Assembly: GCA_036803685.1 (NCBI GenBank)
Contig: DAIRTX010000010.1
Span: forward strand, 2,074 to 66,073
Reading direction: 5' to 3'
Source of the DNA: Verrucomicrobiota bacterium
Lineage (GTDB): Bacteria; Verrucomicrobiota; Verrucomicrobiia; Limisphaerales; UBA11358
Length of the DNA: 64,000 bases
Shown: positions 2,079 to 56,193 of the stretch, piece by piece
Layout of the letters: each line of letters opens with the position of its first letter
Numbering within the stretch: position 1 is the stretch's first letter
Program-made: the position numbers and the translations under genes
The notes under the pieces: generated by a model
The model's database searches: none
Told to the model about the DNA's origin: nothing
What the model saw: only the letters and a program-made list of their open reading frames with translations

Positions 2079-2870
2079 ATGCCTGACTGGATTGCCGTTG
2101 TCATTTTGGGGATCATCGAGGGAATCACCGAGTTCATTCCCGTTTCGTCCACCGGCCATCTGCTGCTGGCGGAGCACCTCCTGAAAGTCCACAAAAGCGA
2201 CCTCTTCAACATCGTCATCCAATGCGGCGCGGTCATCGCCATCCTGCCGCTGTTTCCCCAACGCCTTTACACATTCGTTTTCGAATGGCGCCAGAAGGAA
2301 ACACAGGATTACCTGCTGAAAATTCTCGCCGCCTTCGTCATCACCGGCGCCGTGGGGTTCGTCCTCGACAAAAAAGGCTTCAAACTCGGGGAAAACCCGG
2401 CACCCATCGCCTGGGCATTGCTCATCGGTGGCGTTGCCTTCATTGTCATCGAATGGTGGCTGCGCGGGAAAAAATTGAGCAATGAAATCACCTGGCCCGT
2501 TGTCTTCGCCGTGGCCGTCGGCCAGTTGATCGCGGCGGTTTTCCCCGGTTCGTCCCGTTCCGGCTCGACGATTTTGCTGGCGCTGTTACTCGGTTTGAAC
2601 CGCCCGGCGGCGACGGAATTTTCCTTTCTCGTCGGCATTCCAACGATGCTCGCGGCGGGCGGCCTGAAAATTTTCAAGGCATTGTATCATCCCGTCGCCA
2701 ATGCGCCGCATGAAAGCTGGGGAATGGTTTTACTGGCGACCGCCATTGCAGCGGTGGTTTCCTTTATTGCTGTGAAATGGCTGCTGCGCTACGTGCAAAC
2801 GCACACGTTCAACGCGTTCGGCTGGTATCGCATCGCGCTGGCGATTGTCATTTTTGTTCTGATGCGATAG
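2079..2870 (+). CDS. uppP: Undecaprenyl-diphosphate phosphatase (BacA/UppP)
   Basis: 263 aa. 'ILGIIEGITEFIPVSSTGHLLL' and 'PGSSRSGSTI' are the two conserved UppP motifs. Polytopic membrane protein. Confidence 0.93.
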   Translation: MPDWIAVVILGIIEGITEFIPVSSTGHLLLAEHLLKVHKSDLFNIVIQCGAVIAILPLFPQRLYTFVFEWRQKETQDYLLKILAAFVITGAVGFVLDKKGFKLGENPAPIAWALLIGGVAFIVIEWWLRGKKLSNEITWPVVFAVAVGQLIAAVFPGSSRSGSTILLALLLGLNRPAATEFSFLVGIPTMLAAGGLKIFKALYHPVANAPHESWGMVLLATAIAAVVSFIAVKWLLRYVQTHTFNAFGWYRIALAIVIFVLMR

Positions 2871-2872
2871 GG

Positions 2873-2955
2873 GCTGGGTTCTGGCGTCTTGGTTTTGGGG
2901 AAGGACTCGAAAACTCCTGTTGCCCCAGACGCCAAATCCCAGATGCCAGACGCGA
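2873..2955. repeat. Imperfect palindromic intergenic element (arms GGGTTCTGGCGTCTTGG / CCCCAGACGCCAAATCCC)
   Basis: Inverted arms seen directly. It fills the convergent spacer between uppP and the LysM gene. Confidence 0.6.
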
Positions 2956-2957
2956 AC

Positions 2958-3530
2958 CTACGGCGCCGGCGCGGGAATAAAAACTTTCTGCCCGACCTTG
3001 AGGTTTTTCGGATCCAATCCCGGATTCGCCTTCAAAATCTGGTCCGACGTCACCTTGATGCCCTGATCGCGATACGCCTTGGCAATGATCAAAAGCGTGT
3101 CGCCCGCCGAGACTTTGTATTCGTAACCGTTTTCCTTGCCGCCTGGGTTTGAACCGCCGGTTGCCGAATTTGTGGTCACTGTCGGGGTTGGCTTGCGTCC
3201 CGAAGACGAACCGGCGACTTTGCCGAGTTTTCCGATTTCCTTCAAAATCAATTCCCGGTCCTCCTGCCGTTTCTTGTCAATTTCCTGGACCTGATCGGCG
3301 AGTTTCTTCAAATCGTCTTGGTTCGCGCCGGGTCCGTTTAACTTGTCCCGCAGTTCGCTGATTTCCTTTTCCAGCGCGGTGGTGTGCTTGGCCTGCACCG
3401 CCTGCGCATCGCGCAGGTCCTGGAACTGGCCGTTGAGTTTGTTGATTTGTTGCTGGGTCGCGTCGTCCTGGGCGCGCGCCGCGGCAACGGAAAAACTCAA
3501 GACTAAAAACCAAACTGGAATCCTTTTCAT
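2958..3530 (-). CDS. Secreted coiled-coil protein with C-terminal LysM domain
   Basis: 190 aa with signal peptide 'MKRIPVWFLVLSFSVAAARA'. C-terminal 'YKVSAGDTLLIIAKAY...ILKANPGLDPKNLKVGQKVFIP' is a LysM motif. Confidence 0.8.
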   Translation of the reverse strand: MKRIPVWFLVLSFSVAAARAQDDATQQQINKLNGQFQDLRDAQAVQAKHTTALEKEISELRDKLNGPGANQDDLKKLADQVQEIDKKRQEDRELILKEIGKLGKVAGSSSGRKPTPTVTTNSATGGSNPGGKENGYEYKVSAGDTLLIIAKAYRDQGIKVTSDQILKANPGLDPKNLKVGQKVFIPAPAP

Positions 3531-12656: not shown

Positions 12657-12759
12657 GGAGCGCGGCGTTCACGCCGCTTCAACTCACGAATCGGAAGCGA
12701 CGAGACTTTTCCGGCACTGCTCCAGAATGGACGTTGAAGCGGGCTGAAGCCCGCGCTCC
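12657..12759. repeat. Palindromic element: 27-bp arms GGAGCGCGGCGTTCACGCCGCTTCAAC / GTTGAAGCGGGCTGAAGCCCGCGCTCC separated by 49 bp
   Basis: The arms are near-perfect reverse complements, and each arm contains its own mini-hairpin. Read directly. Confidence 0.8.
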
Positions 12760-13482: not shown

Positions 13483-13686
13483 GAGCCGACGGGAGAAGAA
13501 TCAGACTGAATTCCGAAGTCCGAATTCCGAGATCCGAAAGAAATTCGAACGCCGAAATCCGAAGTGACCAAGCTGGCGGCTCAACCTCCGGTTCCCGGAT
13601 TCGACATTCGGGCTTCGGGCTTCTTTCGGATTTCGGGTTTCGAGCTTCGGATTTAAAATCGTGAGCCTCGTTACCCCGGCTGCTAC
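13479..13686. repeat. ~205-bp nested imperfect palindrome (outer arms GTAGGAGCCGACGGG / CCCCGGCTGCTAC; inner arms of TCCGAA/TTCGGA-rich units)
   Basis: It occupies the whole convergent spacer between coaB and the permease gene. The inner arms share ATCCGAAAGAA in reverse-complement orientation. Confidence 0.7.
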
Positions 13687-15522: not shown

Positions 15523-17607
15523 GTGCGGGCGATGTCGCCGCCGGAAACCAAATCTTCCCCGCTCGCCGCACCGGTCACTTCGCTTTGGAGTGTTGGTGCG
15601 GAGCGCGCGGCCCAACTTGCGCGCCTCGACATCCACACCGTCGAGGATTTGTTGTTGCACCGGCCGCGGCGTTACGAGGATCGCCGGCACTTCCGCAAAA
15701 TCGCTGAACTGACGAAGGACGAACCCGCGACGGCGCGCGGCACGATTGTCGCGCTGGGGCTCAGACGTTTTCGCGGCGGCAGCAAATCCGTTTTTGAAAT
15801 CATTCTCGACGACGGCTCAACGCGGCTGCATTGCCGCTGGTGGAACCTGCCGTTCATGCAAAATTATTTTGCCATGGGCGACGAGGTTTTTGTTTACGGC
15901 AAATTGAGCGAAACGAAGCCGCGCGTGATGACTCATCCCGAAACCGAAGTCATCGAAGGCGGCGAGGAAAGTTTCATCCACCTCAACCGCATCGCGCCGG
16001 TGTATCCGCTCACTGAGGGCTTGCCGCAACGCTGGCTGCGCGGGCTGATCTGGCGCACGCTGGGAAAATTTGAAACGCAAATCGCGGAACCGGCTTTAAC
16101 GTGCTGCCGACATCCTGTCGGCAGTTCTGAAATTTCTTCTTCCGGCAAGATGCCGGAAGCACTTTCTCTTCCGACGCGCGCCAATGCGGTTCACCTGACG
16201 CATTTCCCCGAAGAACTGACCGATGTCGAAATTGCGCGCCGGCGGCTGGCGCTGGACGAGTTCATTGAATTGCAGGTTCAAATCCAAACCCGGCGGAAAA
16301 ATTTTGAATCGCACGCAACGGCGTTGCCGTGCGGCGGCAACAATCGCCTCATCAAACCGTTTCTTGCCCGGCTCGGCTTCAAGCTTACCGATGCGCAAAC
16401 GAAAGTGCTGCGCGAAATCCGCAAGGACATGGGCGGCGCGCATCCGATGCGGCGGTTGCTGCAAGGCGATGTCGGTTCGGGCAAAACCGTCGTGGCTGCT
16501 TGTACGGCGCTGATGGCGTTGGAAAGCGGCTTCAACGTCGCGCTCATGGCCCCGACGGAGATTCTGGCCGAACAACATTTTCAGAATTTCAAAAAGTGGT
16601 TTGAGCCGCTGGGGGTGAAGGTGGAATTGCAAACAGGGAATCGGAAAACATCCAACATCCAACATCCAACATCCAACATCGAACGAACGGTCGATCACGC
16701 ATCACGCATCACGCATCACGCATCACTTTTCATTGGCACTCACGCCCTGCTCACGTCCGGTTTTGATTTGCCGAAGCTCGGCCTGGTCATCATTGACGAG
16801 CAGCACAAGTTTGGTGTGGCACAGCGCGAACAGCTTGTGCGCAAAGGTCGTTATCCGCATTTGCTCGTGATGACGGCGACGCCGATTCCGCGCACGCTCG
16901 GCCTCACGCTTTACGGCGACCTCGAGGTGTCGGTGATTGACGAACTGCCCGGTGGCCGCGGCCAAATCAAAACGTTCATCCGCACGGCCGATCCCGCCGG
17001 GGCGGGACCGAAGGTTTGGGAGTTTATCCGCGAAAAACTCGCTGCCGGGCGACAGGCTTATGTGGTTTATCCCCGCGTCGAAGAATCGGGCGGGAAAGGT
17101 TTGAAAGCGGTGACGAAAGAATTTGAAAATTTGAAAACTTTGCTTGTGCCATTTCGCGTCGGATTGCTGCACGGGCGATTAAAGAGCCGCGAAAAAAACG
17201 AGGTGATGACGGAATTTCGTGCTGGCGGGGTGAACGTATTGCTCGCGACTTCGCTCATCGAGGTCGGCGTGGATGTGCCGAACGCCACGGTCATGCTCGT
17301 CGAAAACGCCGAGGCGTTCGGGCTGGCACAACTTCACCAGTTGCGCGGGCGCATCGGACGCGGCGCCCATGAGTCGTATTGCATTTTGGTTTCCGACGCG
17401 GAAACTGCCGGGGCGAATGAACGCCTGAAAGTACTGGAAGAAACGAACGACGGTTTTCGCATCGCAGAGACGGACTTGAAATTGCGCGGGCCGGGCGAGT
17501 TGCTCGGTCAGCAGCAAAGCGGTTTGCCGAAATTCCGTTTCGGCAATCTGGCTGACGATCTCGATTTGATCCAGCAGGCGCGCGAGTTGGCGGCGAAAAT
17601 GGCGTAG
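15523..17607 (+). CDS. recG: ATP-dependent DNA helicase RecG
   Basis: 694 aa. Walker A 'GDVGSGKTVVAA', 'DEQHKFGV', 'TATPIPRTL' and 'QLRGRIGRG'. The N-terminal wedge-domain context is 'LHRPRRYEDR'. Confidence 0.95.
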   Translation: MRAMSPPETKSSPLAAPVTSLWSVGAERAAQLARLDIHTVEDLLLHRPRRYEDRRHFRKIAELTKDEPATARGTIVALGLRRFRGGSKSVFEIILDDGSTRLHCRWWNLPFMQNYFAMGDEVFVYGKLSETKPRVMTHPETEVIEGGEESFIHLNRIAPVYPLTEGLPQRWLRGLIWRTLGKFETQIAEPALTCCRHPVGSSEISSSGKMPEALSLPTRANAVHLTHFPEELTDVEIARRRLALDEFIELQVQIQTRRKNFESHATALPCGGNNRLIKPFLARLGFKLTDAQTKVLREIRKDMGGAHPMRRLLQGDVGSGKTVVAACTALMALESGFNVALMAPTEILAEQHFQNFKKWFEPLGVKVELQTGNRKTSNIQHPTSNIERTVDHASRITHHASLFIGTHALLTSGFDLPKLGLVIIDEQHKFGVAQREQLVRKGRYPHLLVMTATPIPRTLGLTLYGDLEVSVIDELPGGRGQIKTFIRTADPAGAGPKVWEFIREKLAAGRQAYVVYPRVEESGGKGLKAVTKEFENLKTLLVPFRVGLLHGRLKSREKNEVMTEFRAGGVNVLLATSLIEVGVDVPNATVMLVENAEAFGLAQLHQLRGRIGRGAHESYCILVSDAETAGANERLKVLEETNDGFRIAETDLKLRGPGELLGQQQSGLPKFRFGNLADDLDLIQQARELAAKMA
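16104..16159. repeat. Twin-hairpin element inside recG (CTGCCGAC-atcct-GTCGGCAG ... CTTCCGGC-aagat-GCCGGAAG)
   Basis: Two perfect 8-bp stems read directly. It encodes 'CCRHPVGSSEISSSGKMPEA'. The same family occurs at 56137..56185 and 28122..28192. Confidence 0.85.
16648..16726. repeat. Two heptanucleotide tandem arrays inside recG: (ACATCCA)x~4.7 and (GCATCAC)x~4.8
   Basis: Read directly. Together they encode 'TSNIQHPTSNIERTVDHASRITHHAS', immediately N-terminal to 'IGTHAL'. Confidence 0.9.
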
Positions 17608-24127: not shown

Positions 24128-24342
24128 AATCGCGCCAGTTGCTTGCAGTGGGGGCATCCGCTGCGATGTCAGGAGTTGCGACAACCCCAGCGGGCTTGCC
24201 GCGCCGACTCGTCGCGCCGAAGCAAAACGAAGGCGGAAGCGCGGAGCGCGCAGGCGGGGAGCCGTTGGCACGAGCGAAAAAATCTGACGCTCGTGCCAAC
24301 GGCTTTCCGCCGCGCCTTTTTGCTTTGTGGGGAAATTGAATT

Positions 24343-25778: not shown

Positions 25779-26705
25779 TTAATTACGCCGTGCAATTAAA
25801 AATCTTTCGCGCTGACTGTAATCCTCCCTCACCGCTTCGACAATCCACTTTTCGGTCTCAAAAATTTTCCGGATGGCGTCGGCCTGGCCGTCGCCGAATT
25901 CCAGCATGATCTTTCCGCCCGGTTTCAGGAACGGTTTCGATTCCATTGCCAGCTTCCGGTAAAAATCCAGGCCGTCCGCGCCGCCGTCCAGCGCCGCGCG
26001 CGGATCAAAGTCGCGCACTTCCGGCTGGAGCGTGGCGATTTCGGCGGACGGAATGTAAGGCGGGTTGCTGATGATAAGGTCGAATTCCATTTTTCGGAGG
26101 GAGCTCCGCGAGCTCCATTCTTCTTTGGGGGAGTCAGGGCGTCGCGGCGCTCCGCCCTCCGATTCATTCTGCAGTGCGGCAAAACCGTTGCTTTGCAGAA
26201 ATTCAACCCGTTCGGCGGCGTTATGTCGTCCGGCGTTTTGTTTGGCCAACGCCAGTGCGTCCGGCGAAACATCCGTCGCCACGACTTTTGCGGACGGACA
26301 TTTTACCGCGAGCGCGATGGCGATGCAGCCAGTGCCGGTGCCGAAATCGAGGGCGGTTGAGGGTTGAGAGTTGAGGGTTGAGAGAAACTGCCACCCGAGT
26401 TCGGCGAGAATTTCAGTTTCCGGACGCGGGATCAGAACATGGCGGTTGACGGCGATTTCCAGTCCGCAAAACGAAGTTGAGCCGGTGATGTGCTGGAGCG
26501 GTTCGCGCTGGCCACGGCGCTTGATGAATTCGCGAAGGCCGTCCGTTTCCGCCGGGGTGAGTGCGCGCTCGAAGTTCAGATACAATTTCATGCGCGGCAG
26601 CTTGAGCAGATGTGCGAGCAGGAGTTCGGTTTGCAGGCGCGGCGACTCGACGCCTTTTTTGGCGAGAAATTCCGTGCTCTTCTGAATCGCCTCAAGAACC
26701 GTCAT
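25779..26705 (-). CDS. prmC: Peptide chain release factor N5-glutamine methyltransferase
   Basis: Start at MTVLEAI (the track ORF extends to 26765). 'DFGTGTGCIAIALA' is the SAM motif and 'IISNPPYIP' the catalytic NPPY. It carries two repeat-derived insertions. Confidence 0.9.
   Translation of the reverse strand: MTVLEAIQKSTEFLAKKGVESPRLQTELLLAHLLKLPRMKLYLNFERALTPAETDGLREFIKRRGQREPLQHITGSTSFCGLEIAVNRHVLIPRPETEILAELGWQFLSTLNSQPSTALDFGTGTGCIAIALAVKCPSAKVVATDVSPDALALAKQNAGRHNAAERVEFLQSNGFAALQNESEGGAPRRPDSPKEEWSSRSSLRKMEFDLIISNPPYIPSAEIATLQPEVRDFDPRAALDGGADGLDFYRKLAMESKPFLKPGGKIMLEFGDGQADAIRKIFETEKWIVEAVREDYSQRERFLIARRN
26094..26162. repeat. 69-bp three-way palindromic element inside prmC
   Basis: Outer stem TCGGAGGG/CCCTCCGA encloses GGAGCTC-cgc-GAGCTCC and GGGCG...CGCCC hairpins. 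It is exactly 23 codons, codon-aligned, and encodes 'SEGGAPRRPDSPKEEWSSRSSLR'. Confidence 0.85.
26355..26384. repeat. Heptanucleotide array (GGTTGAG/AGTTGAG)x4 inside prmC
   Basis: Read directly. It encodes 'LSTLNSQPST', immediately N-terminal to the SAM-binding 'LDFGTGTG'. Confidence 0.9.
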
Positions 26706-38839: not shown

Positions 38840-42520
<3,681 letters not shown>

Positions 42521-46214: not shown

Positions 46215-48341
46215 TTACTTTTGTGAGCGCCGGTTGCCCGCTTTTCGGTAACTGACGGACTTCGTCTCTGTTTCGGGCTTGCCGCCATCAATCATCCGCT
46301 TGAGCTCCTTGATTTGGTCGCGGAGCAGGGCGGCCTTTTCAAATTTCAATTCTTCGGCGGCCTTGAGCATTTCACTTTCGAGTTCGTTGATCGTCTCGGT
46401 GAGGTCCACGTCCATGCCGGCGTCGTGGAGGACGGCATCGGCTTTTTTGCGCTTTGATTCGTAGGTGGCAAGGCTTTCCTCCACCGCGCGGCTGACGCTG
46501 CGCGGCGTGATGTTGTGCTCCTTGTTGTAGGCGGTTTGCTTTTGGCGGCGGCGCTCGGTAACGGCCAGAAATTTTTTGATGCTGTTGGTCATCACGTCGG
46601 CGTAGAGAATGACTTCACCGTTGAGATGGCGTGCGGCGCGACCGGCAGTCTGAATCAGGCTCGTCTCGCTGCGCAGAAAACCTTCCTTGTCCGCATCGAG
46701 AATCGCCACCAGTGACACTTCCGGCAAATCAAGCCCCTCGCGGAGCAGGTTGATGCCGACGAGCACGTCGAATTCGCCTTTGCGTAGCGCGCGCAAAATC
46801 TCGACGCGCTCGATGGCGTCAATCTCGCTGTGGAGGTAGCGCACGTTGACACCGATGTCACGCAGGTAATCGGTCAACTCCTCGGCGGTGCGCTTGGTGA
46901 GCGTGGTGACCAGCACGCGTTCCTTCGCGTCGGCGCGCTTGCGGCATTCCTCGATAAGATCGTCAATCTGGCCTTTGAGCGGTTTGAGCGTGACCTTCGG
47001 GTCAATGAGTCCGGTGGGACGCACGACGAGTTCAACGACGCCATCTTTTTCTGTAGCCGCCGCCGTGAGTCGGCGCTGATCCGCTGAAAGTTCAGATGGC
47101 GCGGACTGATCCCGCTTTGCGGGACGGCTACAGGCTTGGCGTGCCCACTCGATTTCCCGCGCGGCGGGCGTGGCACTGGCGTAAATCGTCGGGCCCTGCA
47201 TGGACTGAAACTCCAGAAAATTCATGGGCCGGTTGTCCAGCGCGCTCGGCAATCGAAAGCCGTAGTCCACCAGCACCGTTTTGCGCGAGCGGTCGCCTTC
47301 AAACATGCCGCCGATTTGCGGCACGGTGGCGTGCGATTCGTCAATGACGAGCAGATAATCCGGCGGGAAAAAATCAAACAACGTGCAGGGCTGCGAGCCG
47401 GGCGCGCGCCCGCCGATGTGGCGCGAGTAGTTCTCAATGCCGGAGCAAACGCCCATCTCCTCCATCATTTCCAGGTCGTATTCGGTGCGCATTTTGATGC
47501 GCTGGGCTTCGAGCAATTTGCCGTGCTTCTCGAACCAGGCGATGCGCCCGCCGAGTTCCTCGCGGATGGTGAGAATGGCGCGCTTCAGTTTATCGCCGGT
47601 GGTGACAAATTGTTTGGCCGGGAAAATGGTGACGGCGTCGAGCGGTTCAATTTTGTTGCCGGTCAGCGGCTCGAAGCGGGTAAGGCGTTCAATTTCCTCG
47701 CCGAAAAATTCCACGCGCAGCCCGTCTTCGCGTCCGGCCGGACGAAGTTCCACCGTGTCGCCGCGCACGCGGAACTGGCCACGGGTGAACTCAATGTCAT
47801 TCCGGTCGTACAGCAGATCCACGAGGCGCGTGAGGAATTGTTCGCGCGACAATTCCATCCCGGTACGAACCGGAATGACCATCGCCTCGTAATCCTCCCT
47901 GCTGCCGATGCCATAAATACAGGACACGCTGGCCACGACAATCACGTCCCGGCGCGAGAACAGCGAACTCATCGCGGAAAGCCGTAAGCGCTCGATTTCC
48001 TCGTTCCGGCTCGAGTCCTTTTCAATGAACGTGTCGGTGCGCGGGAGGTAGGCTTCGGGCTGGTAATAATCGAAGTAGCTGACGAAGTATTCGACGGCGT
48101 TGCGGGGAAAAAAGCCCTTGAACTCGGCGTAAAGCTGCGCGGCGAGCGTTTTGTTGTGCGAAATGACGAGCGTCGGCTTGTCCACGTTCCGGATGACGTT
48201 GGCGACGGTGAACGTTTTACCCGAACCGGTGACGCCGAGCAGCACTTGATGTTTCGCGCCGGACAACAGCCCCTCCGTCAGCTTCGCAATCGCCTGCGGC
48301 TGGTCACCGGCGGGCTTGAACGGTGCAACGAGTTCGAACAT
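46215..48341 (-). CDS. uvrB: Excinuclease ABC subunit B
   Basis: Start at [18 protein letters not shown], which aligns with the E. coli UvrB N-terminus (the track ORF extends to 48428). '[15 protein letters not shown]', 'DESHATVPQ', 'RPTGLIDP' and a C-terminal UVR motif. It has a ~33-aa repeat-derived insertion. Confidence 0.96.
47051..47133. repeat. GTAGCCGCC...CGGCTAC family palindromic element inside uvrB
   Basis: The left arm matches the intergenic copy at 53085..53148 at 22/24 positions and a central block matches at 14/14. It encodes '[30 protein letters not shown]'. Confidence 0.9.
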
Positions 48342-48499
48342 GCTACGAAAGTAGGGCGGTAACTGGTGAGCGTCAACGCAGGCTTCGGGGTTGAAATGGC
48401 GGCGGATTTGCGTAAGCTCCGTTGTCAACCAACCATGAAAACTCTTTTGACAACGGCAATGCCGGCTTCCATCCCGTTTTCGTCACGCCGATCCCGGTT

Positions 48500-49498
48500 A
48501 TGATTCGTTCATTTGCCTTCACCACGCAGGGACGGTTGCACACCGGGGATATTGATCTGTTCCTGATGCCGACGTTGCTGGCGGACACCAACCTTTTCCT
48601 TTGGGTTGACCTCGAAGCGCCGACGGAGGAGGAGGTGCGCACGATTTTGGCGGATGTATTTCACTTTCATCCGCTGTCCATCGAGGACTGCGTCAAGACC
48701 AGTCCGTTGCCGAAGGTGGAGGAGTATTCGCCGAAGGAGGGGGATTTGTTCACCCCCTATCTTTTCATGGTCATTCACGCGGTGGATTACAGCCGCCAGA
48801 ACGGGCAATTTGCCACGAATGAACTGGATTTCTTCCTCGGCAAGAATTTTCTCGTGACCTATCACGAAAAACCGGTTCGCAGCGTGTTGTTGGTGGAGGA
48901 GCGCGCCGTCAAAAGTTCGGTGCTGATTGCCCGCGCGCCCGACCGGTTGGCCTACGCGCTGCTCGATTCGCTGGTGGACAATTACAAACCCGCGCTTGAC
49001 GAACTCTCCATGGAAATTGCCGAACTGGAGCAACAAGCCTTGCAGCACCCGAGCCAGAAGACGTTGAACAAAATCCTCCAGATCAAAAAAGAGGTCCTGC
49101 ACCTGCGCCAGATCATCGGGCCGCAACGCGAGGTGCTGGCGCGGTTTGCCGCGGGCGAATTCAAGCTCATTCGCGCCCACTTGGTGCCGTATTTCCGCGA
49201 CGTTTATGACACGCTTTTTCACATCGGCGAAATGGCGCATGGCTACACCGATTCGCTCACCGGCATTTTGCAGGTCTATCTGAACATGTCGTCCAATCAG
49301 ACCGGTGAAGTCGTCAAACTGCTCACGCTCATCACCGTCATCACCACGCCCCTGATGATGGTCGGCACGTGGTATGGCATGAACTTTCCTAACATGCCGG
49401 AATTTAGCTGGAAACACGGCTACCTCGTCGCCGGAATTGTCACCGTCATCTCCACGACGGTGACGTGTTGGTATTTCAAGAGGAAAAAATGGTTTTGA
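48500..49498 (+). CDS. corA: Magnesium/cobalt transporter CorA
   Basis: Start at MIRSFAF (the track ORF starts at 48422). 'YGMNFPNMPE' is the GMN motif, followed by the two C-terminal TM helices. Confidence 0.9.
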   Translation: MIRSFAFTTQGRLHTGDIDLFLMPTLLADTNLFLWVDLEAPTEEEVRTILADVFHFHPLSIEDCVKTSPLPKVEEYSPKEGDLFTPYLFMVIHAVDYSRQNGQFATNELDFFLGKNFLVTYHEKPVRSVLLVEERAVKSSVLIARAPDRLAYALLDSLVDNYKPALDELSMEIAELEQQALQHPSQKTLNKILQIKKEVLHLRQIIGPQREVLARFAAGEFKLIRAHLVPYFRDVYDTLFHIGEMAHGYTDSLTGILQVYLNMSSNQTGEVVKLLTLITVITTPLMMVGTWYGMNFPNMPEFSWKHGYLVAGIVTVISTTVTCWYFKRKKWF

Positions 49499-49518
49499 TG
49501 CCGGTTCAAAATGAAAAA

Positions 49519-50403
49519 ATGAAAACTCTGTTCACGTTGGCGGTGATTGTTTCTTTCCCGATTTTCTTGCGCGCGGAAATGCCGGCGCCGATTCCGCTCT
49601 GGCCGAACGGCGCACCCGGCGCGCTGGGCAGCACGAGCAACGACATCCCCACGCTCACGCCCTATCTGCCCGACTCCATCCCGCCGGGCGGGACGACGGG
49701 CGCGGCGCTGGTGATTTGTCCGGGCGGCGGCTACGGTCATCTCGCGCCGCATGAAGGAAATGATTACGCACTTTGGTTGAATCAGCATGGCGTGACCTGC
49801 TTCGTGTTGAAATACCGGCTCGGTTCGAGCGGCTACCGGCATCCGGCGATGTTGGAGGACGCGGCGCGCGCGATGCGATTGGTGCGGGCGCAGGCGGCGG
49901 ATTGGAAGATTGACCCGAAGCGCGTGGGCATCATGGGTTCATCGGCGGGCGGACATCTGGCGTCCATCTTGCTGACGCATTTTGATTCCGGCGATACAAA
50001 TGCCGCCGACCCGATTGAACGGCAAAGCTCGCGCCCGGACATCGGCATCCTTTGCTATCCGGTCATCACGATGGGCGAATACGCGCATCAGGGTTCAAAA
50101 ATCAATTTGCTCGGCACCCATCCGCCGCCGGAACTGGTCAAGTTGCTTTCCAGCGAACTGCAGGTGACCACGAACACGCCGCCGTGCTTCATCTGGTGCA
50201 CCTACGAGGACAAAACCGTGCCGATGGAAAACAGCCTGATGTTCGCCGAGGCGTTGAGGAAGGCCGCCGTGCCGTTTGATTTGCACATCTACCAAAAGGG
50301 CCGGCATGGTTTGGGACTCAACGACAACCCCCCGTTCGCCCATCCGCATCCGTGGGCGGGCAACTGTCTGTTCTGGCTGAAGGAGCAGGGGTTTGTGCAG
50401 TGA
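49519..50403 (+). CDS. Alpha/beta hydrolase (esterase/lipase, BD-FAE-like), secreted
   Basis: Start at MKTLFTLAVIV (signal peptide). Oxyanion 'CPGGGYGH' and nucleophile elbow 'GSSAGGHLA'. Confidence 0.85.
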   Translation: MKTLFTLAVIVSFPIFLRAEMPAPIPLWPNGAPGALGSTSNDIPTLTPYLPDSIPPGGTTGAALVICPGGGYGHLAPHEGNDYALWLNQHGVTCFVLKYRLGSSGYRHPAMLEDAARAMRLVRAQAADWKIDPKRVGIMGSSAGGHLASILLTHFDSGDTNAADPIERQSSRPDIGILCYPVITMGEYAHQGSKINLLGTHPPPELVKLLSSELQVTTNTPPCFIWCTYEDKTVPMENSLMFAEALRKAAVPFDLHIYQKGRHGLGLNDNPPFAHPHPWAGNCLFWLKEQGFVQ

Positions 50404-50565
50404 TTTAGTAAACAAAGCCGGCAGTCGCCGGTGTCTCAGTTCAGGAATTGGACAGTTTGACTTGTACCAAGTCATGACGGTTCGGGGTGCCAAGGCTCGT
50501 TAATTCTCTCACCGGATTTTTCCCCACTTCTTGGCATTGTCTATGCTAGCACCTTTGAAGAGATT

Positions 50566-51060
50566 ATGAATATTGTGAATCCGTCGAACCCCTTCCAAAT
50601 CCCATCTTGTTTGCAGAGGGCGGACAGTCAACAACGCCGTCGGGAGCGGTTTAAAAAGGGATTTATTGCTGCTGTGGTTGCCGTCGTAATCCTGCTGGTC
50701 GGGCTCTTGATTGCAGGTTGCATGAGCGAACAGACAGCGGCCACGACCCCGGTCAAAAAAGTAACAAAATCAACCGATTTGCCGGCATCCTGGACAAACC
50801 CGGCTTTGATGGTGGAGCAGAAGCCAAAGCCAGGTCCGCAATCGAATCTTAACGCCACCAGCCGGACCGCACCGCCCGTTTCAAAGGAGAAGGCAATGAC
50901 CGCCAGCCATCCCGAGGCTCTTTACGTGGTCAAATCCGGCGATAGCTTGACCCGCATTGCCAAAGTCCACGGAACAACGGTAAAAGCCCTAAAAGCGGCC
51001 AACGGTTTGGAGAGCGACCGCATTGTTGTCGGTGCCAGACTGAAAATACCCACAGCTTAA
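50566..51060 (+). CDS. Membrane-anchored LysM-domain protein
   Basis: 164 aa with TM 'FIAAVVAVVILLVGLLIAGC'. C-terminal 'YVVKSGDSLTRIAKVHGTTVKALKAANGLESDRIVVGARLKIP' is a LysM domain. Confidence 0.78.
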   Translation: MNIVNPSNPFQIPSCLQRADSQQRRRERFKKGFIAAVVAVVILLVGLLIAGCMSEQTAATTPVKKVTKSTDLPASWTNPALMVEQKPKPGPQSNLNATSRTAPPVSKEKAMTASHPEALYVVKSGDSLTRIAKVHGTTVKALKAANGLESDRIVVGARLKIPTA

Positions 51061-51342
51061 GCGCCCGTTGTTTACCCTCGCCTGAATCCTTTCTCCAGGA
51101 GGGGTGGGATTAATTTCGTCTTGGTTAAATTTCCTGCTTGCTTTACCCGCCGTTAAGTCTATTTTCCCGTCCGCCTGAACGCCGCGTGTGCGGATGTTCA
51201 TTGAGGCTGAGAAAAAGCAGTTAACCAACAACCTAACCTTTAACCTCCGTTGCCGTTTGCAGCGCGGTTTGTTAGGCAATGGAGTCTTCGAAGTCCGTTT
51301 CATCGGACGACCAAGCCTCCCGCAGTTCAACCCGGAATAGTT

Positions 51343-53010
51343 ATGCTCACGATGGAAGAAGCCATGAAGCAAAGCGCGACGCGTTTTGCCGCCGGCGAAA
51401 TTGTCAAAGGCACAATCATCGAAGTCCGCCCGAAGGAAGTTTTGGTGGACATCGGATACAAAAGCGAAGGCGTCATCCCCACCAATGAATTTGCAGACGC
51501 CAACGCGCTCAAGGTCGGCGGCGAAATTGATGTCCTCATCGAAAAACTCGAAAACAAGGACGGCACGGTCGAACTCTCGCACGAAAAGGCCGAGTTCAAG
51601 AAAAATTGGGAGCGCATCCTCACCATTTGCAACGAGGGCGGCACGATCCAGGGCAAGGTCAAGTCAATCGTCAAAGGCGGCCTGGTCGTCAACATCGGCG
51701 TCGAGGCGTTTTTGCCCGCGTCGCAAATTGATGTCATCACGCCGAGGAATCTCGCGCAATTCGTCAACAACACCTACGAATTCAAGGTCGTCAAAATCAA
51801 TCAGGAGCGGCAGAACATCGTGCTCTCGCGCCGCGAATTGATCGAGCAGGAGCGCAATGAAAAACGCGCCAAACTGCTGGCCGAAATGGTGCCGGGCGAC
51901 ATCCGCAAGGGCACGGTCAAGAACATTACTGATTTCGGCGCGTTCATCGAGTTGAACGGCATTGACGGCCTGCTTCACATCACGGACATGAGCTGGGGCC
52001 GAATCGCGCATCCATCGGAAATCCTCAAGGTCGGCCAGGAAATTGACGTGGTCGTGCTCGACGTGAACAAGGAAAAGGAACGCGTCAGCCTCGGCCTCAA
52101 GCAAAAAATGGCCAACCCGTGGGACAACATCGAGACCAAGTATCCCGTCGGCGCGAAGGTCAAGGGCAAGGTCGTCAGCCTCGTGCCTTATGGCGCGTTT
52201 GTGCAATTGGAGATGGGGGTTGAAGGTCTCGTTCACGTCACTGAATTGTCGTGGACCAAACGCGTGGCCAAGCCCAGCGACGTGCTCAAGCAGGACCAGG
52301 AAATTGAAGCCGTCGTGCTCGGCATCAATCGCGAGGAACAAAAAATTTCCCTCGGCATTCGCCAGCTTGAATCGAATCCTTGGGACAACGTCGAGCAAAA
52401 ATACCAGGTCAGCGCCCGGGTCAAAGGCAAGGTGCGCAACCTCACCAGCTACGGCGCGTTTGTGGAATTGGAAGAGGGCATTGACGGCATGATTCACGTG
52501 TCCGACGTGTCGTGGACGCGCAAGATCAATCACCCGTCTGAAGTCCTCAAGAAGGGCGACGAAGTTGAAGCCGTCGTGCTCGAAGTGGACCGTCCGAACC
52601 AGCGCATCGCGCTGGGCATCAAACAACTCTCACAAGACCCGTGGGCGAACATTGACCAGCTTTACAAGGTCGGCGATGTCGTTCAAGGCAAGGTCACGAA
52701 ACTCGCGAGCTTCGGCGCATTCATCGGTTTGCAACACGACATTGACGGTCTCGTGCACATCTCGCAGGTCAGCGAGGAGCGCGTGGACAAAATCAAAAAC
52801 GTGCTCAAGGCCGGCCAGGAGGTGACCGCCCGCGTCATCAAGATTGACAAAGGCGAACGCCGCATCGGCCTTTCCATCAAGGCCGCCAGCTACACCGAAG
52901 AACAACTCAAGGAAGAGCAGAAAATTTTCGATGCGCTCAAACCCGGCGAAGACCTCGTGGCGCTGCAACACGCCTTCGACGCCGCCGACGAAGCGCAGAA
53001 ATCGGAGTAA
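51343..53010 (+). CDS. rpsA: 30S ribosomal protein S1
   Basis: Start at MLTMEEAMKQ (the track ORF begins at 51250). It has six S1-domain repeats such as 'GTVKNITDFGAFIEL' and 'GKVVSLVPYGAFVQL'. Confidence 0.96.
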   Translation: MLTMEEAMKQSATRFAAGEIVKGTIIEVRPKEVLVDIGYKSEGVIPTNEFADANALKVGGEIDVLIEKLENKDGTVELSHEKAEFKKNWERILTICNEGGTIQGKVKSIVKGGLVVNIGVEAFLPASQIDVITPRNLAQFVNNTYEFKVVKINQERQNIVLSRRELIEQERNEKRAKLLAEMVPGDIRKGTVKNITDFGAFIELNGIDGLLHITDMSWGRIAHPSEILKVGQEIDVVVLDVNKEKERVSLGLKQKMANPWDNIETKYPVGAKVKGKVVSLVPYGAFVQLEMGVEGLVHVTELSWTKRVAKPSDVLKQDQEIEAVVLGINREEQKISLGIRQLESNPWDNVEQKYQVSARVKGKVRNLTSYGAFVELEEGIDGMIHVSDVSWTRKINHPSEVLKKGDEVEAVVLEVDRPNQRIALGIKQLSQDPWANIDQLYKVGDVVQGKVTKLASFGAFIGLQHDIDGLVHISQVSEERVDKIKNVLKAGQEVTARVIKIDKGERRIGLSIKAASYTEEQLKEEQKIFDALKPGEDLVALQHAFDAADEAQKSE

Positions 53011-53037
53011 TTACTCTGCCAGATTGAATTCACACGC

Positions 53038-53070
53038 AGGCGGGCCGGCAACGGTCCGCCTGTTTTGTTT
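53038..53070 (+). terminator. Rho-independent terminator of rpsA
   Basis: AGGCGGGCC-ggcaac-GGTCCGCCT (9-bp stem including one G-U pair) followed by GTTTTGTTT. Confidence 0.75.
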
Positions 53071-53084
53071 GAAATCCAAGCCTG

Positions 53085-53148
53085 CGTAGCCGCCGACGTC
53101 AGTCGGCGCACACTTTTCAAATGGCGCGGACTGACGTCCGCGGCTACG
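53085..53148. repeat. GTAGCCGCC...GCGGCTAC family palindromic element (intergenic copy)
   Basis: GCGTAGCCGCCGACGTCAGTCGGCGC-acacttttcaaat-GGCGCGGACTGACGTCCGCGGCTACG. It forms a long near-perfect hairpin. Confidence 0.88.
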
Positions 53149-53166
53149 AACAAACCAGCTTTGCCC

Positions 53167-53748
53167 TCACGAAATCAGTGACCGGTGCTGGTAATGCAGG
53201 ATTTTGAACTCCGGCGTGTCGCGGATTTCTTCAGCCAGCACGAACCGGCCTTCAAACGGCGGGAAAAACGCGTCGCCTTCCACCTCGCGTTTGACCAGCG
53301 TGAGGTAAAGATCGGAACAGCGCGGCAACATCTGCGCGTAAATTTCCGCGCCACCGCAGATGAAAATTTCATTGGGGAATTCCGACGGATCCAGCCGCTC
53401 CAGCGAGTTGAAAACTAGCAGTTCCGTCTTTTGGTCCTTCTCCAGTTTGCTAAAATGAAACTGGTAGGCGCGCTTGAGATAACGACCGCCGCGCCACTCG
53501 TGATATTGCCCGAAAATTTCCGGATGACTTTTGATGAGCCGCTGCGGATGCCGCGTCAGGATCAGATTCTTCCGGTTTGGCAGCGGCTGGCCCAGGCTTT
53601 CAAACGTCTTGCGCCCCATGACGATGACGTTGCCCATCGTCATTTTTTTGAACCACTTGAAATCCTCCGGCAGATGCCACGGGATTTTGCCGTCCGCGCC
53701 AATCACGCGGTTCTGCGACATCGCCGCAATGGCCTTGAAGTATTTCAC
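53167..53748 (-). CDS. folA: Dihydrofolate reductase
   Basis: '[48 protein letters not shown]'. I prefer the GTG start at 53748, which gives the canonical N-terminal beta-strand. The ATG at 53775 (track) and the ATG at 53721 are alternatives. Confidence 0.9.
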
Positions 53749-53760
53749 ACGTGGAGTTTT

Positions 53761-53819
53761 AACGCAAAGACGCAAGGTCGCAAAGATTCATTTACTCTGC
53801 GCCTTTGCGCCTTTGCGTT
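53761..53819. repeat. Hairpin element AACGCAAAGACGCAAGGTCGCAAAG ... CTGCGCCTTTGCGCCTTTGCGTT between thyA and folA
   Basis: The arms are reverse complements by direct reading. A related CAAAG/CTTCG-type element lies at about 43800..43870. Confidence 0.75.
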
Positions 53820-53829
53820 GGAATTCTTC

Positions 53830-55380: not shown

Positions 55381-56193
55381 ATGCAGCCCCTCAAATTCAA
55401 ACTGACCATTGCCTACGACGGCACGGGCTATGAAGGCTGGCAGGTGCAAAAAACCGGCACGGGCGTGCAGGAAAAAGTTGAAACGGCGCTGGCAAAGTTG
55501 TTTCCGAGCAAGCCGCGCCTCCACAGCGCCAGCCGCACGGATACCGGCGTTCATGCGCTCGGCATGGTCGCGCATTTTGAAATTCCCGGCGCCGAAGCCA
55601 AAATGTCCGTGCGCCAACTCACGTTGGCGCTCAATGCCTGGCTCCCGGAAGACATTCGTGTGCTTTCCGCTTCACGCGCGCCGAAAGAATTTCACGCGCG
55701 CTTCGACGCGGCGGGCAAACAATATCGCTATTTCGTCTGGAATCATCCGGCCATGAATCCGCTGATTCGCCATACCGCGTGGCATGTGACGCGCCCGCTC
55801 AACTTGAAGGCCATGCGCACCGCCGCGCCGCTGTTTGTCGGACGGCGTGATTTCAAATCGTTCGCCGCCAGCCGAAATTACGAGATGAAATCAACCGTGC
55901 GCCGGCTCACCCGCTGTGACATCAAAAAGTCCGGCCCGCAACTGACGTTTATCATCGAAGGTGACGGTTTTCTTTACAAAATGTGCCGCGGCATCGTGGG
56001 GACGCTGGTGCAGATCGGTCTGGGCAAATTTCCGGCGGATGAAATCCGGCGGATGCTGGCGAAAAAGGACCGGCGCGTGGCCGGCATGACCGCACCGGCG
56101 CAGGGGCTGGTGTTGTGGAAGGTATTTTATAACGTGCTTCCGGCGTCTCGCCGGAAGAACAAATCTGCCGGCAGGATGCCGGCAGCACGTTGA
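55381..56193 (+). CDS. truA: tRNA pseudouridine(38-40) synthase TruA
   Basis: Start at MQPLKFKLTIAYDGTGYEGWQ. It has the 'RTDTGVHA' catalytic Asp motif. The last ~18 codons and the stop lie within a twin-hairpin repeat. Confidence 0.93.
   Translation: MQPLKFKLTIAYDGTGYEGWQVQKTGTGVQEKVETALAKLFPSKPRLHSASRTDTGVHALGMVAHFEIPGAEAKMSVRQLTLALNAWLPEDIRVLSASRAPKEFHARFDAAGKQYRYFVWNHPAMNPLIRHTAWHVTRPLNLKAMRTAAPLFVGRRDFKSFAASRNYEMKSTVRRLTRCDIKKSGPQLTFIIEGDGFLYKMCRGIVGTLVQIGLGKFPADEIRRMLAKKDRRVAGMTAPAQGLVLWKVFYNVLPASRRKNKSAGRMPAAR
56137..56185. repeat. Twin-hairpin element forming the truA 3' end (CTTCCGGCG-tct-CGCCGGAAG ... CTGCCGGC-aggat-GCCGGCAG)
   Basis: Two perfect stems of 9 and 8 bp. It is the inverted counterpart of the recG element at 16104..16159. 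Confidence 0.88.

Follow-up and report, generated by a model that had tools for sequence, protein, structure and literature searches.

The uvrB gene in the DNA stretch analyzed here (64,000 nucleotides, hereafter referred to as the window) carries a palindromic repeat within its reading frame, and we confirm this observation of the first-pass annotation. We show that the palindrome is a GTAG-tagged inverted doublet of REP units (REPIN) belonging to a dispersed family, and that unrelated palindromes occupy the same codon in close relatives. The insert is probably a copy of a selfish REPIN that is tolerated in a flexible linker and has been turned over and recombined among relatives.

The uvrB coding sequence (46215..48341, minus strand) encodes 708 amino acids when read from the ATG at 48341, the start in the public annotation, and P0001 is 100% identical to this protein. 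The mechanically defined open reading frame (46215..48428, minus strand, 737 codons counted from the first TTG) is intact, as had been claimed, and the Pfam domains ResIII, UvrB_inter, Helicase_C, UvrB, and UVR are distributed over both sides of the insert. Solved UvrB structures aligned as two blocks flanking the insert (query residues 30-428 and 461-710), with an E value of 2.3e-249 for 2fdc_A. Since the 2fdc_A chain runs unbroken from residue 403 to residue 404, where the query UvrB has its extra segment, about 32 residues of the latter are additional. Defined against insert-free orthologues ('EIGWSQGHVVELV'), the PDB gap, and Pfam coordinates, the insert measures 93 nt or 31 codons (47043..47135, minus strand), with boundaries ambiguous by a few bases; of the earlier estimate of about 33 extra residues, the segment itself stands and its size is refined. 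The insert follows W399-A-R-Q, about 30 residues ahead of Helicase_C by Pfam coordinates. With the last helix of the first RecA-like domain before it and the conserved RPTGL motif after it, it sits at the junction of the two helicase domains of UvrB. We take this site to be the 1a/3 linker, a naming based on general knowledge of UvrB structures together with the alignment and Pfam; the literature searched gave no residue numbers for the exact domain boundaries of UvrB. An AlphaFold2 model of the window UvrB, built from a 49-sequence alignment, was unusable for placing the insert (mean pLDDT 49.8, pTM 0.31) because the supplied homologues were all more than 83% identical, and the insert was placed by alignment to PDB sequences and by the positions of the Pfam domains instead.

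The core of the insert is the long CTGTAGCC...GGCTACAG hairpin at 47051..47133, which the first-pass annotation had correctly recognized. REP unit 1 (GTAGCCGCCGCCGTGAGTCGGCGC, 47053..47076, plus strand) has 2 mismatches to the family unit GTAG-C-CGCSGAC-GTCA-GTCSGCG-C, which is composed of the GTAG tag and a 7-bp stem enclosing a GTCA loop. The two S positions of the stem co-vary (CGCCGAC/GTCGGCG versus CGCGGAC/GTCCGCG). The spacer (47077..47098) is near-invariant in the six type-A uvrB alleles compared and unrelated to the spacers of dispersed copies. REP unit 2 (47099..47131, minus strand) is a variant form, GTAGCCG-TCCCGCAAAGCGGGA-TCAGTCCGCGC, with a 15-nt mini-hairpin module in place of the canonical 'CGGACG'. 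This module also occurs in dispersed family copies, and the canonical form of unit 2 is present in the type-A alleles P0008, P0021, P0027, and P0035. In the right arm, the extra 'TCCCGCTTTGCGGGA' represents a recurrent REP-unit variant, found in dispersed copies at six loci (L020, L027, L057, L078, L090, and L119), which led us to reject a private indel. Likewise, type-A alleles differ in length by 9 nt not through a simple indel, but through a swap to the recurrent variant REP module. Folding of the uvrB copy gave -42.6/-42.8 kcal/mol (z -4.1/-2.6).

The window holds only one further REPIN of this family, a canonical intergenic copy at 53086..53147. It is located downstream of rpsA, encoding ribosomal protein S1 (51250..53010, plus strand) and followed by a terminator-like hairpin (53036..53063), and thus between rpsA and the convergent folA (53167..53775, minus strand). 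Its two units (53086..53109, plus strand; 53124..53147, minus strand) are separated by a spacer at 53110..53123, and each of its two arm-to-arm mismatches is compensatory inside the 7-bp stem of its own unit. Folding of this copy gave -47.6/-53.7 kcal/mol (z -7.3/-9.0). The reported match between the two copies was reproduced at 22 of 24 positions of the left arm (47053..47076 versus 53086..53109) and in the central block ATGGCGCGGACTGA, identical at 14 of 14 positions. GTAG opens both units of both copies, and the 24-nt unit occurred three times in the window at up to 3 mismatches, versus 0.00 expected from 100 shuffles. The SPRUCE 359 MAG (L039) carries an orthologous copy of the rpsA-downstream REPIN. 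The rpsA-folA spacer of L208 holds a different hairpin, and a target sequence could not be defined from filled versus empty versions of this spacer. No target-site duplication flanks either window copy (tttttCT/GTAG...CTAC/AGgctt in uvrB and gcctgc/GTAG...CTAC/gaacaa downstream of rpsA, without direct repeats). An Rfam scan of 46800..53400 at E values up to 1 returned nothing on either element, apart from two sub-threshold chance matches (mir-375 and Xoo8).

A scan of GTDB species genomes detected at least 119 stretches with copies of the family in about 55 Verrucomicrobiota (Limisphaerales-type) MAGs, and nearly all stretches came from Verrucomicrobiota; related MAGs contained 6 to 12 or more each, as lower bounds. 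The element thus has many other copies among these MAGs, contrary to the absence of copies that would have refuted the first-pass annotation. The scan comprised 141 exact units, in which the GTAG start holds by construction of the search; the partner arms of doublets mostly end in CTAC. Inverted doublets prevail among the copies, with spacers that vary from 10 to 40 nt; when up to 3 mismatches per unit were allowed, 90 of 171 elements qualified as doublets, and a more diverged partner accompanies many of the 'singles'. In four MAGs (L020, L091, L079, and L008), the same REPs adjoin a gene for a RAYT-like tyrosine transposase, on both sides in L020 (gene at 2526-3158) and at one end in the other three. 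The L020, L091, and L079 proteins matched NCBIfam REP_Tyr_transpos (NF047646) with E values of 1e-13 to 1e-15, at 50-57 bits and thus below the curated cut-off of 80 bits, and a Pfam scan of the RAYT-like proteins gave no match. A PDB search, run for the L091 protein as one of the four loci, yielded Escherichia coli TnpA-REP (4ER8) as the sole match (E 3.7e-7), with the HUH and Y-x-x-N-P motifs lining up. A regular-expression motif screen found no RAYT-like open reading frame within the 64-kb window. These associations suggest that a RAYT mobilizes the REPs of the family. Of the earlier designation as a dispersed REP/MITE-like element, the dispersed REP is upheld by the GTAG-tagged doublet and the RAYT-like association, whereas the MITE component is dropped, considering the missing target-site duplications.

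Occupancy of coding sequences is not peculiar to uvrB. Members of the same family were found in frame in at least 20 other recognizable, Pfam-validated genes of related MAGs, encoding UvrA, DnaX, LeuRS (leuS), IleRS (ileS), PurL, MetH, a P-type ATPase, kinases, TsaD, AcrB, GH116, and others. The LeuRS insertion is present at the same site in three MAGs and the PurL insertion in two. All four combinations of predicted open-frame peptides occur, i.e., VAADVSRR or SRGRQSA followed by APTDVGGY or RRLTSAAT. In the window, recG and mfd carry other palindrome families in frame, and Mfd has 7-8 linker sites as variable as that of uvrB.

Comparison of uvrB relatives that are 86-99% identical revealed at least 12 unrelated palindromic inserts at the same codon. 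Some insert is present in 139 of 176 sequences, adding from 9 to 84 residues of unrelated sequence, and the frame stays open across the site in all 80 uvrB loci that tblastn retrieved. The site is empty in a group of 677-aa proteins and in all outgroups, whose identity is about 78% or less. Several of the other palindrome families at this site are dispersed as well. Ten of the 14 inserts tested for folding form strong hairpins (z -4.5 to -7.4) and four are decayed (z above -1.3); since the latter were kept, the hairpin is not required for retention. Composite inserts were found as well, nested in L209 and tandem in L210, as were scars in L133, L134, and L153. A distant clade possesses an unrelated, conserved insert of 35-72 aa in the same UvrB loop, and the site is therefore permissive.

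We propose that the 93 bases in uvrB represent a non-autonomous mobile element, the REPIN, whose family is dispersed through Limisphaerales-type Verrucomicrobiota and associated there with RAYT-like genes for an HUH tyrosine transposase. This copy would have landed in the segment joining the two RecA-like helicase domains of UvrB, or displaced an earlier palindrome there. Each REP arm is stop-free in two of the three frames and the uvrB copy has a length that is a multiple of three, so that the copy would be read through, adding about 31 hydrophilic residues to the predicted translation product. The proposal of the first-pass annotation that a dispersed element colonized uvrB without breaking it is supported by the dispersed stretches and the unbroken frame. 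Most likely, the element has been kept as selfish or neutral DNA because it is nearly harmless, and selection on uvrB would let only in-frame, stop-free copies survive. Different palindrome families would thereby come to occupy the same linker codon across relatives, with new elements inserting into or beside residents, old ones decaying or being deleted, and homologous recombination shuffling the resulting alleles among closely related lineages. Both the neutrality of the insert and this mode of turnover are presumed.

How unrelated palindromes came to share one codon can be viewed in another way. Incoming elements might actively target resident REP hairpins, resulting in site-specific replacement rather than in old alleles shuffled by homologous recombination, a scenario that we take seriously while considering it somewhat improbable. 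It would account for the nested composite in L209, where the loop of a B/E-type hairpin is the exact site of an H element, for the tandem elements in L210, and for the outer frame CGN-CAA-AG...CCC-GGC-GT that all filled alleles share around differing cores. It would also fit P0011 (type A) and P0065 (type B), which are identical for hundreds of bases to the edges of the cassette. Moreover, IS elements are known to use REPs as insertion targets (PMC3733652). However, each insert type has one conserved spacer across backgrounds and therefore arose once. Types A and B occur on backgrounds that are identical over about 390 nt upstream and differ by one base in about 130 nt downstream. The insert type does not track the UvrB tree, and its association with flanking polymorphisms rises near the site, as recombination predicts (Cramer's V 0.47 within 20 residues and about 0.3 further away, versus 0.23 with insert types permuted). 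Finally, uvrB is visibly mosaic between strains, in patterns that come from metagenome assemblies, where strain chimeras are possible. The two processes are not exclusive, and targeting may create alleles that recombination spreads.

It is less plausible, and in our view unlikely, that the insert has been co-opted, either as a peptide of about 31 residues that modifies UvrB activity or partner binding, or as a strong hairpin, in the mRNA or DNA of uvrB, that regulates expression or pauses translation between the helicase domains. In favor of such a role, nearly all members of the clade keep some insert, and the decoration of uvrA, uvrB, mfd, recG, and dnaX echoes the repair-gene bias described previously (PMC3733652). 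In addition, divergence of the type-A insert, with the spacer counted in, is 2-4 times lower than that of third codon positions in the rest of uvrB (0-0.155 versus 0.19-0.27). Either the insert is constrained or the allele has spread recently, and recent spread through recombination explains the slow divergence equally well; an old insertion that is purely neutral does not agree with it. A common function is difficult to reconcile with inserts of unrelated sequence and widely differing length, with the four alleles retained after loss of hairpin potential, and with empty alleles nested among filled ones (L138 beside L139, L150 beside L151). The same families also reside in unrelated enzymes such as LeuRS, PurL, MetH, and AcrB, and the linker sites of Mfd are equally variable. 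An ancestral lineage-specific linker resembling the repeat by chance, or an assembly artefact, has nothing in its favor beyond the intact reading frame and is refuted by the agreement at 22/24 and 14/14 positions with a family that numbers hundreds of copies versus 0 expected by chance, by outgroups without the segment and sister lineages with unrelated palindromes instead of the homologous linker that close orthologues might have carried, and by the identical UvrB protein on 7 independent contigs (ENA, JGI, and NCBI).

Selfish DNA in a tolerant linker is thus the best reading, preferred over a functional module. It is tempting to speculate further, albeit tentatively and with the odds somewhat against it, that the UvrB inter-domain linker and similar linkers of Mfd and other multidomain proteins act as landing pads, where REP/REPIN families insert into resident hairpins, nest, replace each other, and decay. 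Such a landing pad would represent a hypervariable codon, multi-allelic and recombining, within an essential gene, and it would steadily furnish new linker peptide. Should incoming elements truly target resident intragenic hairpins, the birth, replacement, and death of REPs could be followed at single-site resolution in a natural archive, and protein linkers would have a new way to evolve. The REP/REPIN-like elements of uncultured Limisphaerales-type Verrucomicrobiota are, besides being intergenic features, predicted parts of many essential proteins; palindrome-bearing proteins in the window and relatives include UvrA, UvrB, Mfd, RecG, DnaX, aminoacyl-tRNA synthetases, PurL, and MetH. Gene callers and orthology or phylogeny pipelines are therefore to meet hypervariable repeat-derived segments in conserved marker genes. 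For a single codon, the uvrB site is unusually rich, combining many element families with nested and tandem intermediates, with scars, with ancestors lacking any insert, and with shuffled alleles, and it could be used for measuring rates of REP insertion, replacement, and decay. It also bears on the phenotypic effect of intragenic REPs in repair genes, a question standing since 2013.

GTAG-tagged REPs have reportedly been described together with RAYTs by Nunvar in 2010. The REP dimers termed REPINs are mobilized by RAYTs (Bertels & Rainey 2011, PMC3116915). Di Nocera et al. [quoted passage not shown] The family studied here resembles these GTAG REPs and REPINs in the 5' GTAG, the 7-bp stem-loop, the inverted doublets with variable spacers, the sub-families with compensatory stem changes, the many dispersed copies seen in related MAGs, and the REP-adjoined RAYT-like gene of four such MAGs; in both cases, a minority of copies is in frame in open reading frames, adding 20-30 residues, also in excinuclease genes. 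It differs in having its own consensus, in belonging to another verrucomicrobial order known only from uncultured MAGs, and in its divergent RAYT-like protein, which scores below the NCBIfam cut-off and has no Pfam match.

The palindromic elements of Rickettsia (RPEs; Ogata et al. 2000/2002) are repeats inserted in frame in many housekeeping genes (PMC10969869, PMC3733652), and the first-pass annotation had considered them the only well-known precedent, which the published GTAG REPs in uvrA and uvrB contradict (PMC3733652). As with RPEs, the in-frame palindromes occur here in many unrelated genes and are apparently compatible with protein function. The uvrB element thus appears to behave like an RPE, which does not by itself imply membership. 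Rickettsia conorii uvrB is interrupted by two single REPs, and the intragenic REPs of this species (RPE-4 and RPE-6) are classed as CGTC-type (PMC3733652); since the element here is GTAG-type, membership in RPE-1 to RPE-10 is not expected. Further differences are the size of RPE-1 (about 150 bp) and the RAYT-like partner gene found here, RPE-4 and RPE-6 being without a known dedicated transposase. Moreover, Rickettsia is an alphaproteobacterial obligate intracellular parasite, whereas the host here is a free-living soil or peat verrucomicrobium.

Bacterial MITEs go back to DDE-type IS elements and are characterized by terminal inverted repeats and target-site duplications. MITEs such as Correia/NEMIS, ERIC, RUP, and Nezha share with the present family the short, non-autonomous nature, the inverted ends, and possible in-frame fusion to open reading frames. 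They differ from it in that neither window copy has a flanking duplication and that each arm here is itself a GTAG-tagged hairpin. An intragenic GTAG REP in a uvr gene is thus of an already published kind. What our analysis adds to the cases of PMC3733652 is the turnover of at least 12 palindrome families at one linker codon, with nested and tandem composites, among close relatives.

The uvrB reading frame occupies 46215..48428 on the minus strand; the public annotation places its ATG at 48341, giving a protein of 708 aa that is 100% identical to protein P0001. The first-pass annotation had described this frame as intact around an extra in-frame segment and located a hairpin there at 47051..47133. 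Alignment with orthologues bore this out and set the insert boundaries at 47043..47135, that is, 31 codons relative to insert-free orthologues, the outgroups being empty at this position. UvrB structures in the PDB match at an E value of ~1e-249 in two blocks (query 30-428 and 461-710), and since the chain of 2fdc_A is continuous across residues 403|404 between the two blocks, about 32 residues are extra by this measure. The insert comes after the helix that closes the first RecA-like domain ('...PAAREIEW') and ahead of the conserved RPTGL motif, and Pfam Helicase_C begins ~30 residues after it; an AlphaFold model of the protein (pLDDT 49.8) was too weak to inform on the insert. In a distant UvrB clade (loci L181-L201, 62-66% identity), the same position carries a conserved, unrelated, and nonpalindromic insert of 35-72 aa with the consensus 'EFEIxNSxVGNxxYxPHKRxRIGQ...FDVxTPGAxLVVEQIIRPTGL', which independently shows that this loop tolerates large insertions in nature.

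The repeat is a GTAG-tagged REP dimer, i.e., a REPIN. Its 24-nt unit reads GTAG-C-CGCSGAC-GTCA-GTCSGCG-C. The anatomy is clean in an intergenic REPIN of the same family at 53086..53147, which consists of two inverted units with a 14-nt spacer, each unit alone forming a 7-bp hairpin; its two arm-to-arm mismatches are compensatory within each unit. The proposed match of the uvrB copy to this element downstream of rpsA was confirmed, with 22/24 identical positions in the left arm and an identical central 14-mer. Allowing up to three mismatches, the window contains three occurrences of the unit, against 0.00 expected from 100 shuffles, and both copies fold far more stably than shuffled sequences (z of -7.3/-9.0 for the intergenic copy and -4.1 for the uvrB copy on the mRNA strand). 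The intergenic copy lies 22 nt past a terminator-like hairpin between the convergent genes rpsA and folA, which is a typical REP location. The earlier label "REP/MITE-like" holds for its REP part; the target-site duplication of a MITE was found around neither copy, and Rfam contained no family matching the element.

The right arm of the uvrB copy (47099-47131), GTAGCCG-TCCCGCAAAGCGGGA-TCAGTCCGCGC, has the form of a variant unit that recurs elsewhere, in which the 15-nt mini-hairpin TCCCGCnnnGCGGGA replaces the canonical 'CGGACG'. This variant also occurs in dispersed copies at six loci from other genomes (L020, L027, L057, L078, L090, and L119), and it sets the uvrB alleles of the window and P0011 apart from the other alleles carrying this palindrome family (type A), with which they have the spacer in common. 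This suggests that the intragenic copy and a dispersed copy of the variant underwent short-patch conversion.

Scanning GTDB for the exact pattern, with one genome per species and counts that are lower bounds, found the family in at least 119 stretches from at least roughly 55 MAGs, with at least 12 in the richest MAG. Nearly all stretches listed belonged to MAGs of Verrucomicrobiota, Limisphaerales, or 'subdivision 3', and most copies were inverted doublets with mutually unrelated spacers of 10-40 nt. In four MAGs, a gene of ~210 aa adjoins family REPs, on both sides in L020 and at one end in L091, L079, and L008. The L020, L091, and L079 proteins match the NCBIfam model 'REP-associated tyrosine transposase' (RAYT) with E values of 1e-13 to 1e-15, though their scores fall short of the curated cutoff, and in the PDB the L091 protein matches solely E. 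coli TnpA-REP (4ER8), with alignment of the HUH and catalytic-tyrosine motifs. No RAYT-like gene was found within the 64-kb window, and the putative RAYT association, as judged from sequence, holds only in related genomes.

The claim that a dispersed repeat resides in uvrB without breaking it proved correct. All 80 uvrB loci recovered by tblastn, independently of gene calling, are in frame across the site. According to the sequence, a stop codon interrupts just one of the three frames of each arm. One arm yields VAADVSRR (GTA GCC GCC GAC...) or SRRRQSA (AGC CGC CGA CGT CAG), its third frame stopping at TAG; the opposite arm yields APTDVGGY or RRLTSAAT, its third frame stopping at TGA. The fetched loci contain 171 family elements, 24 of which are flanked on each side by at least 140 codons of an ORF, and all four predicted arm-peptide combinations were found among in-frame copies. 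Pfam searches with 20 of these ORFs returned 17 recognizable proteins, including UvrA, DnaX, LeuRS, IleRS, PurL, MetH, a P-type ATPase, two Ser/Thr kinases, TsaD, AcrB, GH116, and a DNA methylase; three more in-frame hosts are LeuRS in L028 and L038, at the same site, and PurL in L112. Most probably, a selfish REPIN is tolerated within a flexible interdomain linker of UvrB and would be read through as part of the gene.

The same uvrB codon has different occupants in different genomes. The site is empty in 37 of 176 clade UvrB sequences, including all outgroups, and the remainder have inserts at the identical codon, of at least 12 unrelated kinds. Of 14 alleles examined, ten form strong hairpins (z of -4.5 to -7.4; 0/200 shuffles as stable), several of them GTAG- or GTGG-tagged, and the other four are decayed (z of -1.2 to +0.55). 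That the peptide or the hairpin of the insert has a function is possible but seems improbable. Palindrome families B, E, D, K, H, and J were also found at loci outside uvrB, and H-, K-, and D-like copies are present in the window. Intermediates comprise a nested composite (H within a B/E-type hairpin, L209), a tandem composite (L210), partial deletions (P0118 and P0028), and short scars, which read 'RQSAGGGTG' in L133 and L134 and 'RQCGGN' in L153. All filled alleles share the outer frame W-[AS]-R-Q ... (P)-G-V; the empty site reads 'W-S-Q-G-[HRK]-V'.

Insert type is discordant with the UvrB tree, with types A and B meeting at core distances of 0.009-0.012 and A-A pairs reaching 0.06. In DNA of P0011 (A) and P0065 (B), ~390 nt upstream of the swapped cassette are identical and one base differs in ~130 nt downstream, with divergent patches elsewhere in uvrB, a mosaic to be read with the caveat that metagenome assemblies may be chimeric between strains. 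The spacer is common to all type-A alleles, so type A arose once; its inserts diverge by 0-0.155, compared with 0.19-0.27 at third codon positions of uvrB. The association of insert type with flanking amino acid polymorphisms was highest within 20 residues (Cramer's V of 0.47) and ~0.3 further off, versus 0.23 with types permuted. These data fit a scheme in which insertions into resident palindromes, or next to them, create alleles that homologous recombination subsequently shuffles. The uvrB site is a turnover hotspot, which is the main addition to the original finding and the part most deserving further work.

Other genes in the window carry comparable repeats. In recG (15523..17607, plus strand), an in-frame double-hairpin repeat of another family at 16098..16165 (AACGTGCTGCCGNCATCCTGNCGGCAG...) encodes 'TCCRHPVGSSEISSSGKMPEAL' just past the wedge domain, which ends at ~residue 180; the helicase core follows this peptide at a distance of ~70 residues. 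An inverted intergenic copy of the family lies 40 kb away at 56131..56191. Two in-frame palindromes occur in mfd (38840..42520, plus strand): an H-family hairpin at 39935..39989 (-39.6 kcal/mol), whose family also fills the uvrB site of L139 and L209, and a GTAG-tagged element at ~42104..42175 (-43.2 kcal/mol) related to uvrB insert type C. In Mfd homologues, seven to eight linker sites are equally hypervariable and bear different repeat-derived peptides of the same kinds, indicating that the phenomenon is general to multidomain proteins of this lineage.

Heptanucleotide tandem repeats were also observed in the coding sequences of mfd (39151-39180, 39709-39738, 40246-40289, and 40535-40564; unit CTCAACC) and recG (16650-16725; units ACATCCA and CACGCAT), translating as 'STLNPQP', 'TSNIQHPTSNI', and 'HASRITHHAS'; positions 26355-26384 are listed with them. 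Since their 7-nt period is not divisible by 3, a gain or loss of copies by slippage would cause a frameshift; these may be contingency repeats or else further decayed mobile repeats. Three more long inverted repeats of other families (12657-12759, 13509-13654, and 24253-24311; arms of 27-55 nt) have no long ORF across them and are apparently intergenic; one ('...CCGAAATCCGAA...') resembles 'SEIRNPKSE' peptides in uvrB/mfd inserts of relatives (P0098, P0117, and P0211). L208, the locus encoding P0027, carries an IS200-like Y1 transposase gene (PF01797) at 764-1210 between thyA and folA; at the corresponding position of the window there is just an imperfect palindrome of 73 nt (53754-53826; GAGTTTTAACGCAAAGACGCAAGG...). 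Downstream of rpsA, L208 has a different hairpin in place of the type-A REPIN.

Rickettsia palindromic elements, reviewed in PMC10969869, had been given as the only well-known precedent, which does not hold. Di Nocera et al. 2013 (PMC3733652), who defined the GTAG- and CGTC-tagged REP superfamilies, reported REPs within ORFs, dimers encoding 20-30 residues, with many intragenic REPs in excinuclease genes, uvrD, recBCD, and polA. The largest number of intragenic GTAG REPs was seen in O. terrae (Verrucomicrobia); two REPs were noted in R. conorii uvrB, and two Xanthomonas species carried different REPs at about the same recB site (PMC3733652). With intragenic REPs in uvr genes already published there, the uvrB insertion belongs to a known kind: it works like a Rickettsia palindromic element, yet the element itself is a GTAG REP/REPIN, showing the structural features that define this group.
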